DNA of 64,000 nucleotides from an uncultured Phycisphaerales bacterium (GCA_963758525.1 CAVWVQ010000001.1:62502-126501), one strand, 5' to 3'; positions 15,857-45,513 are shown, counted from the first letter of the stretch. The notes: generated from the sequence alone by a model not told the origin. Made by a program: numbers and translations.

Positions 15857-16957
15857 ATGCTTGATCCTATCCATGCACGCGCTCGCCAGCAGCGCCTCCT
15901 TGCCGCGATGCAGACGCGCCGGCTGGATGCCGCTGTCATCGGGTGGCGCTCCCATGTTTCCTATCTCACGACGCACATTCCGTTCTGGCTGCATGAGTCG
16001 GCGCTTGTACTGTTCGCGGATGGGCGTTCGCTGCTGATTGCGGCCAAGGACTCGGCAATTCGGTTTGCCACAAACGATGTGCTGTTCTATGACGCCAATT
16101 GGCTGGGGACGCAACGGGAGAATCAGGCGGGGCTTGTTGCAGAACAAGTGACCGCTCAGCTTCGCCGGCGCGGGGTGCGAATTGTGGGGATCGACGCGTC
16201 GGGCGTGAGTGCGGCGGTCGCGCAGCGGATGGATGGCACATGCGCCGCAATTGATGACGAACTGCTGCGGATGCGCCGGCGCAAAGACACCGACGAGCTT
16301 GCGCTGATGCGCAAGGCGATCTCCTGCTGCGGCTCGATGTATGCTCACGCCCGGCGGCTGATCGAGCCGGGGGTTCCGGAGCTGCGCGTTTTTGGCGAGC
16401 TTCACACGGTTGCAGTGGACATCGCGGGCGAGCCGCTCTCGGCATACCTGGGCAATGACTTTGCGAGCGGCGCGATGGGCGGGCCTCCGCGCAAGGCGCA
16501 CGCGGCGGAGGCGGGCCAGATCTATATTCTCGATCTGGGCCCGGCGTATCGCGGTTATTTCTCGGACACCGCGCGATGCGTCTGCGTCGATCGCAAGCCG
16601 ACGGATGCTCAACTTCGCGCCTGGGAAGTCATGCTTGGAGTGTTTCCGATCATCGAGCGGATGGCTCGTCCGGGAGTTCGTTGCCGCGATCTGTTCGATG
16701 CGGCCGAGGCTCATCTGCGCGAGGAGCATGGGTCGTCGATGGTGCATCACCTGGGTCACGGCGTGGGACTTTCGCCGCACGAATTTCCGCATCTGAATCC
16801 GCGTTATGATGACGTGCTGTCGGAAGGGGAAGTGTTCACGTGCGAGCCGGGGATTTACAATGACACGCTGAATGCCGGGCTGCGGCTGGAGAATATGTAT
16901 CTTGTGACGGCAGACGGCGTGGAGAACATGACGCCGTTTCCGATGGAACTGGCTTAA
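15857..16957 (+). CDS. M24-family metallopeptidase (Xaa-Pro aminopeptidase/creatinase-like)
   Basis: ...ELALMRKAISCC..., ...ILDLGPAYRGYFSDTARC..., ...HHLGHGVGLSPHE..., ...VFTCEPGIY... and ...LRLENMYLVT... form the pita-bread metal-ligand pattern. The upstream part of track ORF 15671.. looks non-coding, so ATG 15857 is preferred. Confidence 0.8.
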   Translation: MLDPIHARARQQRLLAAMQTRRLDAAVIGWRSHVSYLTTHIPFWLHESALVLFADGRSLLIAAKDSAIRFATNDVLFYDANWLGTQRENQAGLVAEQVTAQLRRRGVRIVGIDASGVSAAVAQRMDGTCAAIDDELLRMRRRKDTDELALMRKAISCCGSMYAHARRLIEPGVPELRVFGELHTVAVDIAGEPLSAYLGNDFASGAMGGPPRKAHAAEAGQIYILDLGPAYRGYFSDTARCVCVDRKPTDAQLRAWEVMLGVFPIIERMARPGVRCRDLFDAAEAHLREEHGSSMVHHLGHGVGLSPHEFPHLNPRYDDVLSEGEVFTCEPGIYNDTLNAGLRLENMYLVTADGVENMTPFPMELA

Positions 16958-18111
16958 TGACGGTCTCTCGCGACACATTTGAACGATATCGGCAGAAGGG
17001 GCTGGACGCCCGCCGCGCGGGGCAGTGGGATACTGCCCGCATCTATCTTCTGGAAGCCGCCCGCGCGATGGCCGCTTTGAGCAAAACTGCGCAGGGAGAA
17101 GACCTGCGCGAGGCGCGCCGGCAAACCGCGCAGCGGCTGCTCGATTTGGCGCACGACTGCGACACCGCGGCGAAGGAAGGACGCAGAACCTCCACCTTGC
17201 CGCGCCGTGTGCCTGGGAAAGCCGCGCCGGACGCGGTGGGGGAGTCGGACGGCGAGACTTCGGCCCAGCAATGGATCGTAAAGGAAAAACCGGCGCTGCG
17301 ATTCAGCGACGTGGCCGGGCTTGAGGATGTGAAGGAAGACATCCGGCTGAAGATGATCTACCCGTTCGAGCATCCGGAGCTGGCGGAGAAATTCGGAATC
17401 CGCGCGGGGGGCGGCGTGCTGTTATACGGGCCTCCGGGCACCGGCAAGACGCTGTTAGCCAAGGCCACCGCCGGCGAGATTGACGCCACGTTCTTCCGCA
17501 TTTCGCCGGCGGATGTGCTGAGCAAGTGGGTGGGTGAAGCCGAGCAGAACATCAAGAAGCTGTTCGACGCCGCGGCCGCCGAGCCGCGCAGCATCATCTT
17601 TATCGATGAGATCGAGGCGCTGGTTCCCGCGCGGCGGGATGAGGGTTCGAGCGTGATGCAGCGGGTGGTGCCGCAGATTCTGCAGGGGGTCGAAGGGTTC
17701 GACAAAAAGGCGAACCGCTCGCTGCTGCTGATGGGCGCGACTAATGTCCCCTGGCAACTCGACCCGGCGATGCTGCGACCGGGGCGATTTGATGAAAAGG
17801 TGTATATCCCGCTGCCGGACGTTACCGCCCGGCGGAAGATGCTCGACATGTATCTGTCGCACCGCCCGGTTGACGCGGCGGTGAATCTCGATGAACTGGC
17901 CCAGCAGCTTGAAGGTTTCAGCGGAGCAGACGTGAAGTACATCTGCGACCGCGCCGCGACGATCCCGTTTCTCCAGAGTGTCGCGACCGGCCGGGAAGGC
18001 GCCATTACACGCGAGATTCTTTCAGATGTTGTTAAGGACGCGACGCCGTCGGTGACGCCCGATATGCTCGGTCGGTTCCATCAATGGTCGCAGACCGCTG
18101 CGACCGAGTGA
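16957..18111 (+). CDS. AAA+ ATPase, Vps4/katanin-like (MIT-like N-domain plus single classic-clade AAA module)
   Basis: Walker A GPPGTGKT, Walker B IIFIDEIE, ...RPGRFDEKVYIPLPD..., and tail ...ATPSVTPDMLGRFHQWSQ.... The N-terminal 75 aa are helical (YRQKGLDARRAGQWDTARIYLLEAARAMAAL...). The ATG overlaps the peptidase stop (TAATG). Confidence 0.75.
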   Translation: MTVSRDTFERYRQKGLDARRAGQWDTARIYLLEAARAMAALSKTAQGEDLREARRQTAQRLLDLAHDCDTAAKEGRRTSTLPRRVPGKAAPDAVGESDGETSAQQWIVKEKPALRFSDVAGLEDVKEDIRLKMIYPFEHPELAEKFGIRAGGGVLLYGPPGTGKTLLAKATAGEIDATFFRISPADVLSKWVGEAEQNIKKLFDAAAAEPRSIIFIDEIEALVPARRDEGSSVMQRVVPQILQGVEGFDKKANRSLLLMGATNVPWQLDPAMLRPGRFDEKVYIPLPDVTARRKMLDMYLSHRPVDAAVNLDELAQQLEGFSGADVKYICDRAATIPFLQSVATGREGAITREILSDVVKDATPSVTPDMLGRFHQWSQTAATE

Positions 18112-24764: not shown

Positions 24765-26122
24765 ATGGCTGCAGGAGACGACACCATCGCGGGCTTGCGC
24801 GACGCATTGCGGGTTTCCCCCAACAATCTGCCGCTGCGCCAGCATCTGGCGGACACGCTCTGCGGCCTTGGGAGATATGACGAGGCGGAGGCGGAATACA
24901 AGGCCGCCATCAGCCTCTCGCCGGAGAATCCAAAGATCAAGCTTGGGCTGGCCCGCGCGTTTTACCTGCAGGGGAAAAACTCGGCCGCCCTGGTGATCGT
25001 GGAGGAAATGCTCAAAAGCCCTTCTCCGCCGGGCGCGGCGCTGGTGCTGCATGCAAGGCTGCTCGAGCGGACGGGGGAAATCGAGCGCGCGGTTCGGCAG
25101 TACAAGCGAGGCGTGAGCGACGATCCTTCGGCCGGCGATCCCGAATTTGCCGCGCGTCTGGGCATCCGAGCAAGCTCTGATGCCGGCGACGACGAGAGTG
25201 GCGAGGTCGTCGATGGCCGCGTCCGCGCCTCCCGCGAGCATGCGGCAACGCCGGGTGACGCCGAAGTGGAACGGCCGAAGATCAAGTTCAAGGACGTCGG
25301 CGGGATGGATGCGGTCAAGGACGACATCCGCATGAAGATCATCCACCCGATGAGTCATCCCGAACTCTACAAAGCCTACGGCAAAGCGATCGGCGGGGGG
25401 ATTTTGATGTACGGGCCGCCGGGCTGCGGCAAGACCCATCTGGCCCGTGCCACCGCGGGGGAGATCGAGGCCAATTTCATTTCCGTCGGCATCAGCGATG
25501 TTCTGGACATGTGGATCGGCTCGAGCGAGCGCAATCTCCATCAACTTTTTGCGCAGGCGCGCCGCAATCAACCGTGCGTGCTGTTCTTCGATGAGGTCGA
25601 CGCGCTGGCGGCGAGCCGTGCCGACATGCGCGCAGCGCCGGGCGGCACATGATCAACCAGTTTCTCGCCGAAATGGACGGCATCGGCGCATCCAACGAGG
25701 GCGTGCTGACTCTCGCGGCGACCAATGCTCCCTGGCACGTCGATGCCGCGTTTCGCAGGCCCGGGCGATTCGATCGCATCCTGTTTGTGCCGCCGCCCGA
25801 CGCGGCGGCGCGGGCGGCGATTCTGAGAATCCATCTGGCCGGCAAACCCGTCGATGCGATCGATCACGAGCATCTGGCGAAAAAGACCGAGGGGTTTTCC
25901 GGCGCCGACCTCAAGGCGGTGATCGACGCGGCCGTGGACGAAAAGCTTCGGCAGGCGATGAAGATCGGGCGGCCCGAGCCGATGACAACGCGCGATCTCG
26001 TCGCGGCGGCGGCGGGGATCAAGCCGTCGACGAAGGAATGGTTTGCGACGGCCAGAAATTATGCGCTCTATTCCAACCAGGGCGGGACGTACGACGACAT
26101 TCTCAAATATCTGAAGATGTGA
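24765..26122 (+). CDS. TPR-domain AAA+ ATPase (classic clade), frame-broken near 25625-25650
   Basis: ORFs 24765..25652 and 25649..26122 join across ...VDALAASRADMR then ...HMINQFLAEMDG.... N-terminal TPRs precede Walker A GPPGCGKT, Walker B VLFFDEVD and ...RRPGRFDRILFVPPPD.... Confidence 0.75.
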
Positions 26123-37250: not shown

Positions 37251-38003
37251 CTACCACGTCAGCGCATCCAGATGCCGCTGAATGTCCCCCGCGCTTCCAA
37301 AGCGCTCGAGGATCAGTGAATCTTTTTGTCCGCGAATGATGTCCTTCACCACCTTCGGCTGGCGGCTGTATCGCTTTCGCCCTCCGACGATCGTGTAAAA
37401 CACTTCGATCAGATTCAGAACGTCCTTGTGGATCTTGCTGCGCGTCGGCCGGCCGAGATCGAAGAAGTCGAGCAGCTTTACTTCAAAGCCGATGCCGCGC
37501 CGGCGGATCATGATGTTGTCGTCGTGAATGTCGCCGTGATATTCTCCCACCGCGTGAATCGGCGCGATTCCCTTGGCCAGCACGTAAAGCACGTGGAGCG
37601 CCTCGAAAGTGGTCAGCCGGTGCTCGCGCTGGGCAACGAGAAACTCGCTGAGCTTCTGGCCCTCAACCAGTTCGCTGATCACCACCATGACTTTCCGCCG
37701 ACGGAAGTAGGCGATCTCCTGATGGTGATACTGCATGAGAATGGGACAGTGCCGCAGCGCGTCGAGCTTGCGTGCGTATGCGATGGCGGCTTTGCCCATC
37801 GGGTCGCGATGGGGGTAATAGAACTTGGCCGCGCGGCGGATGCCCGTCGCCCGCTCGACGATCGAGTAGACTTCCCCTTCCCATCCGCTTCCCAGCAACC
37901 CCTCGATCAGATATTTGCCTGCGACGCTCCGCCCCGGCGGGAAGTCGAATCGTTTCACTTTGCCGGGCCTGTACATACGCTCATATTGGGAGCCGCCGGG
38001 CAA
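37251..38003 (-). CDS. Small atypical protein kinase (RIO/Bud32/Kdo-kinase-like catalytic loop)
   Basis: 250 aa. ...LLGSGWEGEVYSI...RRAAKFYY..., catalytic HGDIHDDNIMI and ...KLLDFFDLG.... There are no extra domains. Convergent with the FHA gene. Confidence 0.65.
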   Translation of the reverse strand: MPGGSQYERMYRPGKVKRFDFPPGRSVAGKYLIEGLLGSGWEGEVYSIVERATGIRRAAKFYYPHRDPMGKAAIAYARKLDALRHCPILMQYHHQEIAYFRRRKVMVVISELVEGQKLSEFLVAQREHRLTTFEALHVLYVLAKGIAPIHAVGEYHGDIHDDNIMIRRRGIGFEVKLLDFFDLGRPTRSKIHKDVLNLIEVFYTIVGGRKRYSRQPKVVKDIIRGQKDSLILERFGSAGDIQRHLDALTW

Positions 38004-38374: not shown

Positions 38375-38764
38375 ATGGATTTTCTCAAAAGCATCGGCGG
38401 GAAAATCGTCACCGGGCTGGTGGCGCTGGCAGTGATCGCGGCAGGGGTCTCCTGGTTTGAGATGGACCCGGGCACGCGGCATGCCATCGCCTCTGACGCT
38501 GGCCGTATTCTTGCGTGGTCCGGAGTTGTCATCCTCCTGCCGTGGGTGACGTTCTTCCTCATCGGCGCCGTGGCGCGGCAGGAGAGCAACCTCGCGGGAG
38601 CCTTGCTGGTGACGGGATATACGATCGTCGAGGCGGTCGTGCTGGCGTGGTTGTTTGGGTGGTCGCTCCGCGGGGCGATGCCGTGGGTCTTCTTTTCGGC
38701 GGCAGTTTTGTTGGCCGCGGCGTATAATCTTTTCACGTGCGACTGGATCGCCGAGAAATTGTGA
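38375..38764 (+). CDS. Small 4-TM membrane protein (first gene of the kinase/zinc-ribbon/Snf7-like operon)
   Basis: 129 aa with four hydrophobic segments. Its stop lies 4 nt before the kinase ATG. I recognise no family. Confidence 0.55.
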   Translation: MDFLKSIGGKIVTGLVALAVIAAGVSWFEMDPGTRHAIASDAGRILAWSGVVILLPWVTFFLIGAVARQESNLAGALLVTGYTIVEAVVLAWLFGWSLRGAMPWVFFSAAVLLAAAYNLFTCDWIAEKL

Positions 38765-38768
38765 AGCC

Positions 38769-39824
38769 ATGATTACTCCAAATCAACGCGTCGGCGAATA
38801 CGTTCTGCAGGAAAGGATTAGCGCCGGCACTTTTGGCGAGGTTTGGAAGGCGCATCACCACGTCTGGAGCGACCAGATCGTGGCGATGAAAATCCCCACC
38901 GATCCGCAATACATCCGAAACCTCCAGCGCGAAGGCGTCACCATTCACGGGCTGGTTCATCCCAACATCGTGCGCACGTTGGCGTTCGATCCGTTTGCCG
39001 AGGTCGCGTATCTGGCGATGGAATACATTCCCGGCACCAGCCTTCGACCGGTGATTCAGAGCCGCAAGCTCAAACCGGACGACGCGGTAGCCATCATGCG
39101 GCAGGTGCTTGCGGGGCTCTCGTTTGCCCATGAGCGCGGGGTCGTGCATCGCGATATCAAGCCGGAGAATATCCTCGTCCACGAGCGCGTCGCCCAGGAA
39201 GGATATTCGTCGCCGGGGTTGATCAAGGTGACGGATTTCGGATTGGGCCAGACGTCGCAGACGATGGCGGCGGGGTCGATCGCGTACTCGGCGTCCCTGC
39301 AGACGCCGCAGGCGCAGGAAATCGCCGGCACGCTCGACTACATGGCGCCCGAGCAACGGAGCGTCCAGGAGAAAATTGACGGACGCACCGATCTCTACGC
39401 CTGCGGCGTGGTCCTTTACGAGATGCTCACCGGCGAACGACCAGCCGGCACAGAACTGCCCAGCGAGCTGAATCACGCCGTTTCGCGGCAACTCGACGAA
39501 GCGTTCCGTCGCTCCTACTCCCGGCTGGATAAGCGATTTGCTTCCGCGGCGGAGTTTGCCAAGGCGCTGGGCGGCCCGCCGCCCGTCCCGCAGACGGCGC
39601 CGCGGAGCGTGCCGTTGAATATGATGTTGCTGGAAAAGCGGGCGTGCCCGCAATGTCGTCAGTCGGTGGAAGCGGCGGACCAGTTCTGCATGCACTGCGG
39701 CGTGCAGCTGGTCGAAAACGTTCGCCGCTGTCCGCAGTGCGGCGCGTATCCCGATCTGACGGACCAGTATTGTATTTTTTGCGGACAGACGCTCAGCCGC
39801 ACTCCGATGCCGGCCGCGAGGTAA
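38769..39824 (+). CDS. Ser/Thr protein kinase (Hanks type) with C-terminal double zinc ribbon
   Basis: From ATG 38769: ...ISAGTFGEVWKA...VAMKI..., HRDIKPENIL, TDFGLG, GTLDYMAPEQ. The C-terminus reads CPQCRQ...CMHCG...CPQCGA...CIFCG. Confidence 0.85.
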   Translation: MITPNQRVGEYVLQERISAGTFGEVWKAHHHVWSDQIVAMKIPTDPQYIRNLQREGVTIHGLVHPNIVRTLAFDPFAEVAYLAMEYIPGTSLRPVIQSRKLKPDDAVAIMRQVLAGLSFAHERGVVHRDIKPENILVHERVAQEGYSSPGLIKVTDFGLGQTSQTMAAGSIAYSASLQTPQAQEIAGTLDYMAPEQRSVQEKIDGRTDLYACGVVLYEMLTGERPAGTELPSELNHAVSRQLDEAFRRSYSRLDKRFASAAEFAKALGGPPPVPQTAPRSVPLNMMLLEKRACPQCRQSVEAADQFCMHCGVQLVENVRRCPQCGAYPDLTDQYCIFCGQTLSRTPMPAAR

Positions 39825-39830
39825 AGAATC

Positions 39831-40112
39831 ATGGTGCATGTAGCCGTTGGCGCGGTGCTGTTTGCGGCCTTGATGGTCATCACCGCGGTGCTCTTCACGA
39901 TCTGGCTGGTGGCCCTGGTGGCGCGCTGGATGTGGCGCCTGGTGATGGGCGGCACTTCGCGTTCGTCATATTCTTCCAAGGGTGTTCTCGACACACGGAT
40001 GTGCAGCCGCGACCGCTGCCGGGCGGTAAATCCATCGCAGGCACAATTCTGTCGTCGCTGCGGCACCAGCTTGAACGACGCCGCCGCCGTCGGACGGCGC
40101 GTCGCCGTCTGA
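39831..40112 (+). CDS. Single-pass membrane protein with C-terminal zinc ribbon
   Basis: 93 aa. TM region VAVGAVLFAALMVITAVLFTIWLVALVA, then CSRDRC...FCRRCG. It starts 7 nt after the kinase stop. Confidence 0.6.
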   Translation: MVHVAVGAVLFAALMVITAVLFTIWLVALVARWMWRLVMGGTSRSSYSSKGVLDTRMCSRDRCRAVNPSQAQFCRRCGTSLNDAAAVGRRVAV

Positions 40113-40130: not shown

Positions 40131-41062
40131 GTGAGTATGACCGTGCCCACGTCAACTGCCGCCCCGGTCGATCCCCCGGCGATGGATCCTCAATCGCAGA
40201 TGGTGCGAGCCGCCGGTTCAACCGGGTGGGGCGTGATCACTTCGGCGATCGTCGGCGCGGTTTCCTTTGGCATACTTCCCGCATTCCGCTGGTCTGGACA
40301 ATTCGCCGACATCGCCGAACGCGAAGCATCGCGCTTTCGCGGTCCGGTCCGCTGGGCGATCGCAATCGATGGATCGCAGCGGACCGCGCAGGAACTGAAC
40401 GAGCGCGTTCTCGCGTCGCTCCGCGCTGGTACCTTACGGTTTTCAGCTACGCGCTGGTCGTATACGTTGCCGTTACTTTCTCGCTGGAATTTCTCAGGCA
40501 ATCGTTTTCGATCGATCGGCTGATGCTCTATACCTATTCCTACGCGAGGCCTGAATCCGATTTCATGTGGAACGTTTTTGACGCGGACCGATGGGCTCGA
40601 TCGGAACACGCTCGCGCAGCGCATATGCTCTGGTGCGTCGCGCTGTCCGTTGCGTATGGAGCCCATTGGCTGCAGGTCCGTTGGCATCGAAAGGCCGTTC
40701 GGCGGTTTGTTCGCACCTTCAATCGCGTCGTTCAACCGCGCGGCATCCTCCCCGTGCAAATGCGCGAGCCGGGCGCCTTTCATCCGATGCTGGTCGTGGG
40801 AGCCATTCTGTTTGGTTCGTTTGGCGCCTGGTGGGGAATCCCCATGCTGCTGGCCGCTTCGGCTCAGAGTCGATATACCTTGATAACGCGCCGGTCGCTT
40901 GCAGTGCAGTTTGCCGACCGCATGAGCAAAAGAGCGGTGCAGCGCACGGTCGAAAGGCGCTGCCCAACGCAGGGCTGCCGGGCGCTGCTTCCGCCGCCCG
41001 CGAAATTTTGTCCGCAGTGCGGAGCGCGGGTGCCAGAGCCGATGATCGATCAGGTGGGTTAG
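40131..41062 (+). CDS. Polytopic membrane protein with C-terminal zinc ribbon, frame-broken near 40410-40430
   Basis: ORF 40131..40523 (...ELNERVLASLRA) joins the frame-2 reading (WYLTVFSYALVVYVAVTF...), which is the tail of track ORF 39644..41062. It ends ...RRCPTQGCRALLPPPAKFCPQCGARV.... Confidence 0.55.
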
Positions 41063-41065
41063 TCC

Positions 41066-41206
41066 ATGCCGCAAATGTATCGAATGCTCGCGGTGATTGG
41101 GTGGACGTGGTGCATCGGGTTCTTCCTTTTCCTTGCATTCAAGCTGTGCCGTTTGCCGAGGCGGACGGATGCAGCAAATTCGGATGAGTCTTCGCGAGTT
41201 GCCTGA
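41066..41206 (+). CDS. 46-aa single-TM micro-protein
   Basis: MPQMYRMLAVIGWTWCIGFFLFLAFKLCRLPRRTDAANSDESSRVA. The ATG lies 4 nt after the previous stop, and its TGA overlaps the next ATG (TGATG at 41204..41208). It is below the ORF-track length cut-off. Confidence 0.45.
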   Translation: MPQMYRMLAVIGWTWCIGFFLFLAFKLCRLPRRTDAANSDESSRVA

Positions 41207-42669
41207 TGAGCAGTACCGATCCCCTGATTCACCGCGAGCTTGAAGAGCAGATGATTCGGCACGTCGAACGCCTGCTCACCGATGATCGTCTTCGCATCGA
41301 TACCGCGATCGGCCGCCGTCCGGTCATGACGTTTATCAACAGCCCGGTGAAATCGGATCATGCGGTCGAGCTCAAGCGCCTGATGAGCGAGATGAATGTG
41401 CCGGACCGCGAGTTGCAGGCGAAGATGCCGGTCGGTCTTTCGCTCGAGGTCGCGCTGACGCGCAGGAAGCTCTTCATTTTTACGCAGACGGTGGGGCGCT
41501 TGCGCGTGTTGTGCGTCCCGCCCATGCGCGCCCTGATTGGCGGTGAAGTCCCCAGGCCGATGACGACCGGCGAGTTGCAAAAGGTGCTCGCTTCACAACC
41601 GCCGTCGACTCCCGGAGCGCCGACGACGATATTAATCGTCTCGACCAGCGGCTACACGCTTGAGGCACACGAAGCGGCCGAGCGCCGCACCGATCGCACC
41701 GTTATACTGGCTGAGCCGAACGACGCCGGCGGGTGGACCATTACCGGTCCGGCCGAAACCAAGGCGTTGACTGATCTGTTCGATCCGGAGGTGGAGGACG
41801 AGAAGCGCAGCCGCGTTCGCGAGCAGATTGAAGAGGAGAAGATGAATCTCTCCGGCGCCGGCATCGCCACCGACAAGCTCGCGGCGCGAATGCAGCTTCC
41901 GGTGCAGTTTGTCGAGGGCGAGCTGAAGGCCTACGCCAAGGCCAACCCCGGCCTGGTCGCCCGGCGACTGGATGGCCGGGTTGTTCTCTTTCGCGAGGGG
42001 TCGGGTCCGCCGGCACTCGCCGCTGGAGGTTCATCCATGCCGTTGATCGATCGCGTCAAAACACTCTTTGCCCGCAAGGGCGAGGTCGAGAAAAAAATCG
42101 CGTTTCTCTCCGAGCGCCGCACCGCTCTCTCGCAGCAGCGCGAACGTTCCTACGAAGAGATGGCGGGTATCGAGCAGCAGGAAGCGCAGCTCAAACGCCA
42201 GTTCGGCGAGGCGACCGGTACGATCACCAAGAAGCGGGTCACGAGCCAGCTTCTGCAGATGCGAAAGGATCTGGAGCGACGCCAGCAGCTTCTCTCGGTG
42301 CTGAATCAGCAGGTGGATGTCGTAAGCACGCATCTGCACAATCTGGAGCTCGTTCAGCAGGGCCAGACCGCGAAGCTGCCGGATGCGGATGAGATGACCG
42401 CCGACGCGGTCAAAGCCGAGGAGATGCTCGCGGAACTTGAAGCCAACAGTGAATTATCCGCGTCAATCGGACAGACCGGCGGAATCGCGGGGCTCAACGC
42501 CGAGGAACAGGCGCTTTACGAAGAACTCGAGCGCGAAATGAATCCCGCGAAATCCATCCCCGCGTCCTCCCCCGGGCGAAAGATCGCATCGAAGCAGGAT
42601 GAGCCGGCTCGTCCCGAGCCGACTTCCGCCCCCTCGCGGCAGCGTCGCGGCGAAGCCGAGCCCGGATAA
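41206..42669 (+). CDS. Multidomain protein: unknown N-terminal globular region plus C-terminal Snf7/ESCRT-III-like coiled coil
   Basis: 487 aa. From about aa 275: MPLIDRVKTLFARKGEVEKKIAFLSERRTALSQQRERSYEEM...LLQMRKDLERRQQLLSVLNQQVDVVSTHLHNLELVQQ...MTADAVKAEEMLAELEA...EEQALYEELEREM. This region is a paralogue of the next gene. Confidence 0.5.
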   Translation: MSSTDPLIHRELEEQMIRHVERLLTDDRLRIDTAIGRRPVMTFINSPVKSDHAVELKRLMSEMNVPDRELQAKMPVGLSLEVALTRRKLFIFTQTVGRLRVLCVPPMRALIGGEVPRPMTTGELQKVLASQPPSTPGAPTTILIVSTSGYTLEAHEAAERRTDRTVILAEPNDAGGWTITGPAETKALTDLFDPEVEDEKRSRVREQIEEEKMNLSGAGIATDKLAARMQLPVQFVEGELKAYAKANPGLVARRLDGRVVLFREGSGPPALAAGGSSMPLIDRVKTLFARKGEVEKKIAFLSERRTALSQQRERSYEEMAGIEQQEAQLKRQFGEATGTITKKRVTSQLLQMRKDLERRQQLLSVLNQQVDVVSTHLHNLELVQQGQTAKLPDADEMTADAVKAEEMLAELEANSELSASIGQTGGIAGLNAEEQALYEELEREMNPAKSIPASSPGRKIASKQDEPARPEPTSAPSRQRRGEAEPG

Positions 42670-42672
42670 ACC

Positions 42673-43286
42673 ATGGCACTGATCGACAAGTTGTTCAATC
42701 GCAAGAAGACGCTCAGCGAGCTGGACCGACAGGAGCTGCGCAAGGAAGAAATCCTGCTCGGCAAGCAGCGCGATCGTCTGTTCAAGAAGATCGAGAAGAT
42801 CAGCCAGGACAAGCAGCGCATTTTCAAGCAGGGATCCGAGCAGAAATCGCCCGAGCTGCGCAAGCGCTTGCGCAGGACTTTGAGTTGCAGACCCAGGAGC
42901 AGCTCATGGCCGCCCGTGAGCTGAATCTGCGCAGCAAAGAGCTGATGACCGTCAGCCGGCTGCGCATGGTCCGCGAAAACAAAGACGGCGGCCGGGCGCT
43001 GGGCCGGCTGAATGTCACGGACAAGGACGTTGCGCGGATCAGCCAGTGGATCGAAGACGACTCGGTCACGCAGGACATGTATCAGGAACGGCTCGACACA
43101 CTGCTGGAGTTGGGCGCTCAATCCGATAAAGACGCCGTCGCCCAGGCCGGGCTCACCGGCGCCGGCCAGGAGCTGATGCAGCTTTGGGACCAGCTCGATC
43201 GGGGGTCGATCAAGCAGGAAGAGGCGTTTGACGAAGCGGATAAAGCGGTGCGCCGACGAAATGCATCGATGGAAGGGGAGAGGTGA
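42673..43286 (+). CDS. Snf7/ESCRT-III-like coiled-coil protein (about 204 aa), frame-broken near 42865-42872
   Basis: ORFs 42673..42924 and 42885..43286 join as ...SPELRKRL then AQDFELQTQEQLMAAREL.... MALIDKLFNRKKTLSELDRQELRKEEILLGKQRDRLFKKIEK... resembles the Snf7/CHMP4 helix-1 region as I remember it. Confidence 0.5.
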
Positions 43287-43295
43287 CAAGCAAAT

Positions 43296-43544
43296 CCGAA
43301 TGACGAAACCAGAAACCAGAATCAAGCCCGAATGACGAAACCCGAAACCAGAATCAAGCCCGAATGCTCGAATGACGAAGCCCGAAACGAAGTTAGACCG
43401 CCGATTTCCTGGAACAATCGCGTCGCGGGGAGGACGATGACATCGCGGAGCGTAGCGTTCCCTGCCTTTGTTTCGTCATTCGGTCATTCGTCATTTGGGT
43501 TTGATTGATTCTGGTTTCTGGTTTCGTCATTCGGGTTTCCGTCG
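43296..43544. repeat. Family G: large imperfect inverted repeat with internal 32-bp tandem units
   Basis: The left arm (43296..43392) holds CCGAATGACGAAACC(A/C)GAAACCAGAATCAAGC twice (43296..43327 and 43328..43359) plus a degenerate unit. The right arm (43467..43544) is its inverse (...GATTCTGGTTTCTGGTTTCGTCATTCGG...). Confidence 0.85.
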
Positions 43545-43613
43545 TTCCCCGCGCCTCCCGTTCTGCGCCTCCCGTTCTTGCAGTACTGCGGTCCCGGTCC
43601 TAAACTTGCGAAT

Positions 43614-43704
43614 GTTCGCTAGGGGTGGTTCGGGCCACTTGGCCCGCACCTGAGAACAAACCCTTGGAACCTGATCCGGGCCGAACCGGCGTAGGGAAGC
43701 GAAT
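43614..43704 (+). promoter_or_regulatory. TPP (THI-box) riboswitch upstream of thiC
   Basis: P1 TTCGCT (43615..43620) pairs with AGCGAA (43698..43703). Conserved ...AGGGGTG...CTGAGA...ACCCTTGGAACCTGATCCGGG...CCGGCGTAGGGAAG.... A CCTTCTCTCC tract downstream could sequester the AAGGAG SD at 43766. Confidence 0.85.
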
Positions 43705-43776
43705 CGTTGGCTTATCCCTTCTCTCCGCGCGGTACATTCCGGTCCAGTTTGAAAATGAAATGCTAAAGGAGTTGCC

Positions 43777-45513
43777 ATGAGTCAGTCGCATGTGCAGGCA
43801 GATGGATCGTTTGTACTTCCGCCTCTCGGGGATAATCCATCAACCGATCGGCAGGGGACCTCGCCCGGCTCGTTCGCACAGCGCGGCCGCATCGGGACGC
43901 CGTGGACGTTCAGCTCTCCTGACACGCCGGGCATGCCGGGCGTTTCCGACGTCACGGCACTGGACTTCGCGTCGCCGAAAGATCGCGATGGCAAAACACA
44001 GCTTGAAGAGGCGCGCAGCGGACGAATCTCGGCGGAGATGAAACGCGTGGCGCTGCGCGAGCCGCATCTCACGGCCGATCAGATTCGCTTTGAGGTCGCG
44101 ACCGGCCGCATGATCGTGCCGGCCAACAAGGTGCATCTGGGCTATAAGCTCGAGCCGATGTGCATCGGGCGCGCGGGGCTGACCAAGGTGAACGCCAACA
44201 TGGGCGCGTCGCCGGTGTCGTCGGGAACTGAAGAGGAAGTGGAGAAGCTCAAGTGGGCCGAGCGGTGGGGCGCGGACACGGTGATGGATCTTTCCACCGG
44301 CGGCAATCTCGACGCCTGCCGCGAGGCGATCATACAAAACAGCACCGTTCCCATCGGCACCGTCCCGATTTATTCGATGATCATCGGACGCTCGCTGGAG
44401 GACCTTACGTACGATCTGATTTTGAAGGAGATCGAGAAGCAGGCGAAGCAGGGCGTCGACTATTTCACAATCCACGCCGGCGTGCTGAAGGAGCATCTGC
44501 CGTTTGTCCGCAAGCGCCTGATCGGCATCGTCAGCCGGGGCGGAAGTTTGCTGGCGAAGTGGATGCTGCATCACAACAAGCAGAACCCGATGTACGAAAT
44601 CTTCGACGACATCTGCGCCATCATGCGCGAGTATGACGTCAGCTTTTCCCTCGGCGACGGCCTCCGCCCAGGCGGCCTGGCTGATGCAACGGATCAGGCG
44701 CAGCTTCTGGAGCTTCGCACGCTTGGGGAGTTGACCGAGCGCGCCTGGGCCAACGGATGCCAGGTGATGGTCGAAGGCCCCGGGCACGTTCCGCTCGATC
44801 AGATTGAATACAACATGAAGCTGCAGCGCCAGCTCTGTCATGGCGCCCCGTTTTACGTTCTCGGGCCGCTGGTGACCGACATTTTTCCCGGCTACGACCA
44901 CATCACCAGTTGCATCGGCGCCACCAGCGCCGGCTATCACGGCGCGAGCATGCTCTGCTACGTCACGCCCAAGGAGCACCTGGGACTTCCCAAGAAGGAC
45001 GATGTGAAGCAGGGGTGCGTTGCCTACAAGATCGCCGCGCACGCGGCGGACGTCGCATTGGGAATCCCCGGTACGCGCGATCGCGACGATGAACTCACCA
45101 AGGCGCGAGCCGCGCTCAACTGGCAGCGCCATTTCGATCTCAGCTTCGATCCCGACCTGGCCCGCGCCTATCACGACGAAGACCTGGAAGTGGACACTGA
45201 CTTTTGCGCCATGTGCGGGCACGACTGGTGCTCGGTCCGCATCAGCAAGGAAATCGTGGAGTTTTATAGCGGAAAGGATGAACAGGCCCAGCCCGCCAAA
45301 CGCGCGCTTGCTTCACCGGGCATCAACGTCGCCGGCGCGGAGATTCTTGAAAAGCGCGGCGTTCTGACGCAGGAACAGATCCACCAACTCGCCCACAAAG
45401 GAAAGAAAGCCGCTTGTCACAGCGACAACGTAGGTGATGAGACGGCCGCAAAACTCGTTCAGGTGAACACGCTCAAGGCACATGGGGTCGCGGTGAATGA
45501 GAGCGGGTTGTAG
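43777..45513 (+). CDS. thiC: Phosphomethylpyrimidine synthase
   Basis: 578 aa. ...[13 protein letters not shown]...[13 protein letters not shown]...IGTVPIY...FTIHAG...EGPGHVP...[10 protein letters not shown]... are ThiC radical-SAM hallmarks. Confidence 0.95.

Follow-up and report, generated by a model that had tools for sequence, protein, structure and literature searches.

In reviews, PspA and Vipp1 are treated as the ESCRT-III proteins of bacteria, the PspA systems covered have no Vps4-like partner, and a Vps4-like ATPase appears to be absent from bacteria (PMC7619361). Occasional bacterial homologues of Snf7, some of them encoded beside AAA+ ATPases, were reported by Ravi et al. 2024, together with archaeal-type VPS4-like ATPases that were transferred to bacteria and in whose loci snf7 was replaced by a TPR-6TM protein; the cases came from Actinobacteria (an RND fusion), Deltaproteobacteria and Bacteroidetes (PMC11237479). 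Planctomycetes are absent from the main text of that study, and no winged-helix fusion, kinase linkage or internal start was described in it (PMC11237479). All Planctomycetes lack FtsZ, no other free-living bacteria are known to divide without it, and the mechanism of planctomycete division is unsolved (PMC12673574, PMC5147048); no report of an ESCRT-III or Vps4 system in this group was found in the literature searched. Here we describe two adjacent open reading frames (ORFs), ORF-A and ORF-B, in a 64,000-nt stretch of DNA, hereafter the window, from an uncultured Phycisphaerales bacterium (GCA_963758525.1 CAVWVQ010000001.1:62502-126501). Both ORF-B and the last 210 aa of ORF-A probably represent very divergent members of the Snf7/CHMP branch of ESCRT-III. 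The gene cluster to which they belong would be a clear exception to the reviewed view that bacteria lack the combination of ESCRT-III with a Vps4-like ATPase. The cluster is relevant to where ESCRT came from (ancient inheritance versus transfer from archaea), on the nucleation of ESCRT-III polymers and on membrane remodelling and division in FtsZ-less planctomycetes.

The cluster resembles the archaeal and eukaryotic systems of ESCRT-III (Snf7/CHMP/CdvB, PF03357) and Vps4/CdvC in several respects. The predicted subunits are ~200 aa long, with an N-terminal motif of the MxxLFGxxK type, a helical hairpin and short C-terminal helices. Several paralogues are encoded together, one of them CHMP3-like with a MIM1-like C-terminal helix, and gene order links them to a classical AAA ATPase that has one AAA domain and a helical N-domain; a paralogue of this ATPase has Vps4_C. 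A winged-helix component immediately upstream, which the winged-helix-like unit of ORF-A would match, is known from archaeal ESCRT loci (PMC10936438). The cluster differs in being bacterial (Planctomycetota), and ORF-B and the C-terminal domain of ORF-A fall under all curated thresholds. In ORF-A, a winged-helix-like unit is fused N-terminally to the ESCRT-III-like domain, whereas the winged helix of CdvB is at the C-terminus; ORF-A also has an extra alpha/beta domain and an apparent internal start. A Hanks-type kinase and zinc-ribbon membrane proteins are encoded in the same cluster, and the ATPase has a sequence nearer to Cdc48 D2 than to Vps4 and is unlinked in this genome. PspA and Vipp1 (IM30, PF04012), as bacterial members of the ESCRT-III superfamily, share the helical hairpin core, but no sequence or profile similarity to them was detectable, whereas the families described here align with Snf7/CHMP.

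Predicted folds and profile similarity to Snf7/CHMP

The two genes and their parts are as follows; structural features are from AlphaFold2 (AF2) models, with confidence as the predicted local distance difference test (pLDDT).

41206..42669, + strand: ORF-A, 487 aa, one unbroken open frame
41206..41850, + strand: ORF-A residues 1-215, conserved alpha/beta domain, family unassigned (pLDDT 85-95)
41851..42003, + strand: ORF-A residues 216-266, winged-helix-like unit (predicted helices 222-229 and 233-246, strands 250-255 and 258-263)
42024..42028, + strand: GGAGG, an internal Shine-Dalgarno sequence separated by 8 nt from the in-frame ATG of Met278 (42037)
42037..42543, + strand: ORF-A residues 278-446, ESCRT-III-like domain (predicted helices 280-335, 339-384, 394-424 and 432-445)
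42643..42666, + strand: ORF-A C-terminal motif RRGEAEPG, residues 480-487 (family consensus RRxEPEAG)
42673..43286, + strand: ORF-B, divergent ESCRT-III-like ('B-type'), 204 aa after restoring one G
between 42864 and 42865, + strand: 1-nt deletion in ORF-B relative to intact homologues (GG to G; aag-gcg to aag-cg)

ORF-A and ORF-B are real conserved genes, not chance ORFs. At E ≤ 1e-3, protein searches returned 677 sequences related to ORF-A and 1730 related to ORF-B, and an exhaustive search of 1.84 billion representatives gave 180 relatives of ORF-B. In a scan of GTDB species, ORF-B relatives occurred in 151 genomes, nearly all of them Tepidisphaerales or Phycisphaerae. The homologues of ORF-A carrying names were from Tepidisphaeraceae or Humisphaera, and those of the two proteins together from Tepidisphaeraceae, Humisphaera, Phycisphaerales or Planctomycetota. 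The bacterium of the window is assigned to the Tepidisphaerales (class Phycisphaerae). The N and C parts of ORF-A were in one frame, i.e. fused, in 70 of 71 loci. All peptides quoted in a preliminary description of this DNA (TTILIVSTSGYTLEAHEAAERRTDRTVILAEPNDAGGW, IATDKLAARMQLPVQFVEGELKAYAKANPGLVARRLDGRVVLF, MPLIDRVKTLFARKGEVEKKIAFLSERR and EEQALYEELEREM) are included in this frame, which encodes, in order, the alpha/beta domain, the winged-helix-like unit, a Gly-rich linker, the ESCRT-III-like helices, a disordered tail and a conserved C-terminal motif (mean pLDDT 78).

The AF2 model of ORF-B (pLDDT 80) consisted of a hairpin formed by helices 19-56 (38 residues) and 60-105 (46 residues), followed by five short helices. 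The model of the ORF-A C-terminal domain likewise had a long helical hairpin and then shorter helices, and a Gly at the hairpin tip was conserved in both. The ESCRT-III layout that the preliminary description had proposed, with the helical hairpin it had expected from structure prediction, was recovered in both proteins: an N-terminal motif, an alpha1/alpha2 hairpin, the tip Gly and short helices.

Profiles were compared with hhalign, without secondary-structure scoring and against small references; the customary standard is a probability of 90%. The references were seven ESCRT-III and three PspA-family sequences, all confirmed by Pfam as strong members (Snf7, E 1e-16 to 1e-58; PspA_IM30, 1e-48 to 1e-72). 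ORF-B was represented by alignments of diverse (A3) and of the most distant members (A4, the 'far group'), both drawn from the 180 relatives. The far group aligned with the Snf7/CHMP reference with a local P of 1.2e-4 (probability 56%, 116 columns) and a global P of 4.6e-6 (probability 71%). This alignment was in register from the N-terminal LFG-type motif through alpha5, and the hairpin-tip Gly paired with the KG of ESCRT-III. The near group matched CHMP2A with 46% probability (P = 2e-4 over 134 columns), and P for ORF-B against CHMP2A ranged overall from 2e-4 to 4e-5. The C-terminal domain of ORF-A aligned in register with the ORF-B far group (probability 76%, P = 2.4e-5) and gave a P of 4.4e-3 (local) or 3.4e-4 (global) with the Snf7 reference. 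Reversed-profile controls yielded P ≥ 0.0036, 60 coiled-coil controls (tropomyosin and coiled coils of the same loci) all P ≥ 0.024, and the PspA, Vipp1 and LiaH references P = 0.11-0.97 against every ORF-A and ORF-B family profile. Since the coiled-coil, reversed and PspA comparisons scored far worse, we regard the signal as real and specific to the Snf7 branch, although it stays under the 90% standard. In direct Pfam searches, the best of 46 ORF-B family members (P0378, residues 28-189 on Snf7 positions 12-158) reached 17.5 bits (E = 0.0035), against a Snf7 gathering score of 27.3 bits; the family consensus sequences had no Snf7 match.

A hydrophobic and basic motif before alpha1 was apparent by direct reading. 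It was MALIDKLFNRKK in ORF-B, MPLIDRVKTLFARKG in ORF-A from Met278 and MGLFKSKxERR in a family encoded downstream of ORF-B in relatives (see below); the N-termini used for comparison were MGNLFGRKK (CHMP6), MGLFGKTQEK (CHMP3) and MDLLFGRRK (CHMP2A). The form common to the ORF-A C-terminal domain and ORF-B, MxLID..F.RKK (also written MxLxDxxF.RKK), is a putative membrane-binding motif of the ESCRT-III type. Candidate MIM-type motifs are the EEQALYEELERE helix and RRxEPEAG end of ORF-A, the EAFEEADKAVRRR helix of ORF-B and ELGKLAGLRAELNSLK in the downstream family.

The gene cluster and its AAA ATPases

Genomic context is the strongest evidence for an ESCRT-III identity. Locus counts given here refer to 80 GTDB species loci fetched from relatives in 151 genomes; L numbers denote individual loci. 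The cluster is conserved across Tepidisphaerales and Phycisphaerae, with ORF-A directly upstream of ORF-B in 71-73 of the 80 loci and a gap of mostly 0-100 nt between them. In its fullest form it comprises a small membrane protein, a double-zinc-ribbon Ser/Thr kinase, zinc-ribbon membrane proteins, ORF-A, ORF-B, a CHMP3-like protein and an AAA ATPase. It is present in the cultured Fontivita pretiosa B-254 (L029, complete genome), which makes the idea testable.

In 54 of the 80 loci, the gene after ORF-B is a third one, encoding about 200 aa. Its family profile matched PDB chains of CHMP3 almost from end to end (E = 7e-6) and Snf7 with E = 1.7e-3; designer-PPR matches that ranked higher were repeat artefacts with no significant single stretch. 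In hhalign the family reached 92-95% probability with CHMP1B/2A/3, and Pfam Snf7 was below threshold in 8 of 32 members. We take its C-terminus to resemble a MIM1 helix. Judged by sequence, this family ('A-type', CHMP3-like) is clearly ESCRT-III. The C-terminal domain of ORF-A gave no hhalign signal to it and for this reason is grouped with ORF-B, not with the downstream family.

An AAA ATPase is encoded in the window at 16957..18111, 23 kb from ORF-A and ORF-B. The genes associated with the cluster in the window are:

16957..18111, + strand: classical AAA ATPase, 384 aa, with a helical N-terminal domain (Pfam AAA 6.5e-39, AAA_lid_3 1.5e-8)
37251..38003, - strand: divergent kinase-like protein, 250 aa, flanking the cluster (Pfam Pkinase 6.9e-14; 82% identical to the L001 neighbour; 19 of 80 loci)
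38375..38764, + strand: membrane protein, 129 aa, first gene of the cluster (upstream in 51 of 80 loci; 55-64% identical to L001 and L002)
38769..39824, + strand: Hanks-type Ser/Thr kinase with a C-terminal double zinc ribbon (Pfam Pkinase 1.8e-41, DZR 6.4e-8; 51 of 80 loci)
39831..40112, + strand: 93-aa protein with a transmembrane segment and a zinc ribbon (Pfam DZR 1.5e-4; 33 of 80 loci)
40131..41062, + strand: frame-broken zinc-ribbon membrane protein, about 310-330 aa (matched in two frames by the 329-aa L002 protein in tblastn; Zn_Ribbon_1 C-terminal)

The ATPase at 16957 was 41-42% identical over its full length to ATPases of distant planctomycete operons (L003:6892-8001, E 1e-97; L005:10478-11599, E 4e-103). 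Orthologues 50-54% identical to it lie in the same cluster as ORF-A and ORF-B in 8 of the 80 loci (L078 and L081-L087), all from divergent Phycisphaerae. The gene order in L083 is membrane protein, kinase, ORF-A, ORF-B, CHMP3-like gene and ATPase. In four of six loci examined in distant Planctomycetota, the ORF-B homologue had one or two AAA ATPases and a CHMP3-like gene as its immediate neighbours. The link to the 16957 ATPase that had been suggested from the window is supported by this orthology and gene order, in which its orthologues follow ESCRT-III-like genes. The second ATPase paralogue of a distant operon exceeded the Pfam threshold for Vps4_C (25.5 versus 21.3 bits). An orthologue of the 16957 ATPase scored 15.8 bits, below that threshold, and Vps4_C was not among the Pfam matches of the 16957 ATPase itself. 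A Pfam scan of 13 ATPases found generic P-loop families only.

Several results weigh against the ESCRT-III assignment. The hhalign probabilities for ORF-B and the ORF-A C-terminal domain, 8-76%, lie below the 90% standard, and ORF-B compared weakly with a large alignment of the downstream ESCRT-III family (P 0.008-0.035). Both window proteins were below every curated threshold of Pfam and NCBIfam, with DUF489, SMC and GatB as sub-threshold noise; Snf7 and PspA_IM30 were absent from their Pfam results even at E ≤ 10. Family profile hidden Markov models of ORF-A and ORF-B found no ESCRT-III or PspA among PDB sequences, and in BLASTP the C-terminal part of ORF-A did not resemble ORF-B. Foldseek searches of the PDB gave E-values above 0.07 throughout for both models, and the ORF-B model matched no ESCRT-III structure. 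Of context, the CHMP3-like gene is not adjacent in the window or its closest relatives, the ATPase is not adjacent to ORF-A and ORF-B in the window, and ORF-B is frame-broken in this assembly. The PDB sequences nearest to the 16957 ATPase were the D2 domains of Cdc48, p97 and VAT, with Vps4 lower. The MIT-like domain previously ascribed to this ATPase is suggestive only. Pfam MIT did not match it; the N-domain of a paralogue matched Pfam MIT with E = 0.048 over 55 of 66 positions, and 13 ATPase N-domains compared with a MIT reference gave P = 2.7e-5 (reversed, 0.016), but within each subtype the reversed controls scored as well as the forward profiles.

The Snf7/ESCRT-III assignment made in the preliminary description stands in part: hhalign similarity to Snf7/CHMP exceeds the controls, but remains below 90%, no curated model recognised the two proteins and Foldseek matches were not significant. 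That description had looked to Foldseek for ESCRT-III superfamily matches and had named top profile matches to unrelated families as evidence against its proposal. Foldseek gave a significant match for neither model, and direct profile searches returned only insignificant unrelated matches (SMC, DUF489, GatB, langerin); by that measure the direct searches count against the ESCRT-III idea. The paralogy claimed for the two genes is a distant relation, visible to hhalign at the P given above but not to BLASTP. About 20 of the 50 best Foldseek matches of ORF-A in the PDB belonged to the ESCRT-III superfamily, none significantly. These sub-threshold matches included Vipp1, PspA, Asgard ESCRT-IIIB, CHMP2A/3, CdvB2, Snf7 and CHMP1B, and several others were winged-helix proteins; among viral structures, the ORF-A model had no significant match. 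The ORF-A C-terminal consensus also gave a sub-threshold match to DUF489/HflD (E = 4e-4, 20.8 versus 26 bits), which was taken as a helical chance match.

It is unlikely that ORF-A and ORF-B are instead lineage-specific coiled coils unrelated to ESCRT-III, for example scaffolding or adaptor proteins for the kinase and the zinc-ribbon membrane proteins, in which the hairpin arose by convergence. The silence of the curated models and PDB profile searches, the insignificant Foldseek results and the dissimilarity of the two proteins in BLASTP are consistent with such an origin, as is the fact that in Tepidisphaerales the kinase and zinc-ribbon genes, rather than an ATPase gene, are the steadiest neighbours. 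It is at odds with in-register, full-length hhalign signals that are 2-4 orders of magnitude better than the coiled-coil and reversed controls, with the MxLxDxxF.RKK motif and hairpin-tip Gly common to both proteins, and with the tight linkage to a CHMP3-matching gene family and to AAA ATPases.

The distant operons (L003:5057-13584, L004:8001-10407, L005:8001-11599 and L008:7001-9652) combine an ORF-B-type gene with a pair of paralogous AAA ATPases, of which one has Vps4_C, with a CHMP3-like gene (about 195 aa) and with zinc-ribbon-rich proteins. L003 additionally encodes an HTH_17 protein, a Band_7/coiled-coil/zinc-ribbon protein and an uncharacterised 443-aa protein, and kinases fused to FGE-sulfatase domains flank several of the four operons. 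The Meth_adaptin systems described in archaea are ESCRT neighbourhoods that encode a protein with SPFH/Band_7, coiled-coil and zinc-ribbon parts (Makarova et al. 2024, PMC10936438). L003 is similar in that its Band_7/coiled-coil/zinc-ribbon protein is encoded beside ESCRT-III-like genes and two AAA ATPases; in contrast to those systems, the Band_7 protein was seen in this one distant locus only and is missing from the window, whose zinc ribbons are on the kinase and small membrane proteins. Small nucleotidyltransferase-like ORFs lie between the CHMP3-like gene and the AAA ATPase in L078 (11976-12708), L081 (10761-11460) and L086 (10778-11125), and L078 and L081 each have a HEPN-like partner ORF besides. 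By eye, these ORFs are toxin-antitoxin-like; they interrupt an otherwise contiguous cluster.

Frame break of ORF-B and apparent internal start of ORF-A

The ATG of ORF-B (42673) opens three bases past the ORF-A stop. As assembled, ORF-B is split into two frames, 42673..42924 (83 aa) and 42885..43286 (133 aa). Intact 204-aa homologues with 98-99% identity read ...SPELRKALAQDFELQ... at the break (ELRKALAQDF), and since these keep the frame, one G is missing from ORF-B in the window. The frame repair proposed in the preliminary description was correct overall; one residue of it, R in place of A65, needs correction (RKRL should be RKAL). Two other genes of the window are frame-broken. The zinc-ribbon membrane protein at 40131..41062 changes frame near 40330-40360, and a TPR and AAA ATPase gene at 24765..26122 changes frame near 25626-25634; the product of the latter is 48% identical to the 16957 ATPase across part of the AAA domain. 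The frame-broken genes suggest an indel-prone assembly, and because two other genes carry similar single breaks, that of ORF-B is more likely an assembly indel than the mark of a pseudogene.

We consider it improbable that ORF-B is a true pseudogene and that the pair is decaying in this genome. The frame is really broken in the window, and the third ESCRT-III gene is missing downstream, with an inverted-repeat element in its place. Apart from the missing G, however, the repaired ORF-B shows no damage and is nearly identical to its intact homologues; similar breaks in two unrelated genes of the same 64 kb are typical of assembly indels, and the closest relatives keep ORF-B intact though they also have no adjacent third gene.

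ORF-B is followed in the window by the inverted-repeat element and a thiC riboswitch. The repeat is long and imperfect (43271-43390 and 43470-43559), lies directly after ORF-B and has arms of up to 55 nt at 80% or 34 nt at 94% complementarity. It is built of direct repeat units of about 32 nt (CCGAATGACGAAACCAGAAACCAG...). It occupies the site at which most relatives have the CHMP3-like gene, and may be a repeat element or a deletion scar. A thiamine pyrophosphate (TPP) riboswitch (43611-43714, + strand; Rfam RF00059, 64.1 bits versus a gathering score of 54.3) is followed directly by thiC (43777-45513; Pfam ThiC_Rad_SAM 1e-178).

An invariant Met278 opens the ESCRT-III-like domain of ORF-A, and the first residues of this domain match the N-terminus of ORF-B. 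The codon of Met278 was ATG in all 49 loci compared. An exact GGAGG lies 4-9 nt upstream of it in 44 of these, and a 4-mer of it in three more. The Gly-Gly pair encoded over the internal Shine-Dalgarno sequence always opens with GGA, though ORF-A uses GGC most often for Gly; of the 35 ORF starts in the window, only 2 have GGAGG before them. The conservation of GGAGG and ATG, and the retention of the GGA codon, argue for selection at the nucleotide level for an internal start. Besides the 487-aa fusion, ORF-A probably also gives a 210-aa product with only the ESCRT-III-like domain. This conserved start would be a clean, directly checkable case in which a single gene gives two isoforms.

The N-terminal module of ORF-A and possible roles of the cluster

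The region of about 270 aa noted earlier at the N-terminus of the first gene was confirmed as an extension that ends in the winged-helix-like unit of the AF2 model. Residues 1-215 had no match in Pfam, NCBIfam, PDB sequence profiles or Foldseek. They contain the motif STSGFTxEAHExAERRxDRTVxLxEPNxxGGW (alignment of 60 homologues). Together with the winged helix, this domain compared weakly in hhalign (probability 56%, P = 1.1e-4) with the last 300 aa of the HTH_17 protein that heads the distant operon L003 (L003:5057-6289). The winged-helix-like unit was modelled with a pLDDT of about 88-91. Its local Foldseek matches to winged-helix proteins (GntR 6az6, ScpB 3w6j, SmtB 1smt and the C39 winged helix of Pol III, 2dk5) were sub-significant, with probabilities of 0.6-0.9 and E-values of 0.08-0.9, and Pfam reported no winged-helix match in ORF-A. 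On the model, a winged helix is plausible. ESCRT-II has tandem winged-helix units; in ORF-A a single unit was seen. At the other end of ORF-A, the linker before RRxEPEAG is variable, disordered and rich in Pro and Ala. The RRxEPEAG end is kept even where N-domain identity is only 26-29%, for example in the L083 homologue from Phycisphaeraceae (...KGRAEPEA), and is a candidate short linear motif or partner-binding peptide.

A nuclease-fold core of the Mrr type had been suggested for the N-terminal region. Pfam found no Mrr_cat or other nuclease in ORF-A at E ≤ 10, none appeared among the PDB profile or top Foldseek matches, and the invariant residues of the 60 homologues formed no D...(D/E)xK pattern on the central strands. 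The TSGFTxEA...VxLxEP segment is, as we take it, the sole part that recalls the C-terminal half of Mrr_cat. Because the Mrr or PD-(D/E)xK reading of residues 1-215 has no profile, fold or motif support, it was dropped.

If the Snf7/CHMP assignment holds, the subunits could form a joint polymer at the cytoplasmic side of the membrane, by means of the MxLxDxxF.RKK motifs at their N-termini and of their helical hairpins. The full-length product of ORF-A would tether or nucleate this polymer through its winged-helix and alpha/beta module, in a way similar to ESCRT-II or CdvA, and the short product from the internal start would be the source of untethered subunits. The N-terminal module may, by analogy with winged-helix proteins encoded upstream of archaeal ESCRT-III genes, be an adaptor or nucleator (PMC10936438). 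The polymer would be remodelled or disassembled by the AAA ATPase, whose gene in the window would have been relocated to 16957-18111, and the kinase of the cluster could regulate the process. By a further analogy, with the Cdv system of FtsZ-less archaea, the cluster might be a Planctomycetota ESCRT-III and Vps4-like machine for cytokinesis or large-scale membrane scission, a role we regard as doubtful. The long isoform of ORF-A would then be a site-specific nucleator, the short isoform and ORF-B the polymer subunits, and the linked Ser/Thr kinase would provide control by the cell cycle.

An anti-phage or mobile-element system, in which a nuclease-like, DNA-binding (winged-helix) module acts with membrane-acting helical effectors and an AAA ATPase, is very unlikely. 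The N-domain of ORF-A is faintly like the C-terminal half of restriction-endonuclease-like folds, the homologous module of the distant operons bears an excisionase-type HTH_17 domain, a recombinase and primase element adjoins one distant locus, and toxin-antitoxin pairs are inserted in the cluster of some genomes. Against this stand the unconserved nuclease catalytic motif and a stable position and synteny across 80 species loci of one class. PADLOC returned nothing for ORF-A, ORF-B or other helical proteins and only generic AAA matches for the ATPases, and tblastn of the genes searched found no plasmid or phage matches. That ORF-A and ORF-B are PspA/Vipp1-type (IM30) effectors of envelope stress, acting alone in membrane repair under control of the kinase, would agree with the presence of Vipp1 and PspA structures among the sub-significant Foldseek matches of ORF-A, but is scarcely credible given the absence of Pfam PspA_IM30, a co-operonic third gene that matches CHMP3 and Snf7 and not PspA, and hhalign P values of 1e-3 to 5e-6 to Snf7/CHMP, against those for PspA, Vipp1 and LiaH by which membership of that family was rejected.

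Three observations concern the distribution of the two genes. A 2999-nt contig labelled as an Acidobacteria metagenome-assembled genome (L031, JACDDJ010000681.1) encodes proteins 72-80% identical to those of ORF-A, ORF-B and the third gene in L001, and its ORF-A parts are 64-68% identical to those of the window; it is probably a mis-binned contig, not a true occurrence outside Planctomycetota. On the Tepidisphaerales-like contig L002, a DUF6655 lipoprotein gene and an AsmA-like gene follow ORF-A in place of ORF-B (L002:9694-10422), so ORF-B can be unlinked from ORF-A. Genes of the ORF-B family at L006:1631-2227 and L007:7001-7597 are solitary, and the family is therefore not always part of an ATPase operon. 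They have UbiA and flavoprotein genes on one side and no ATPase nearby, and are followed on the other side by an uncharacterised gene of 285-343 aa and then mutL.

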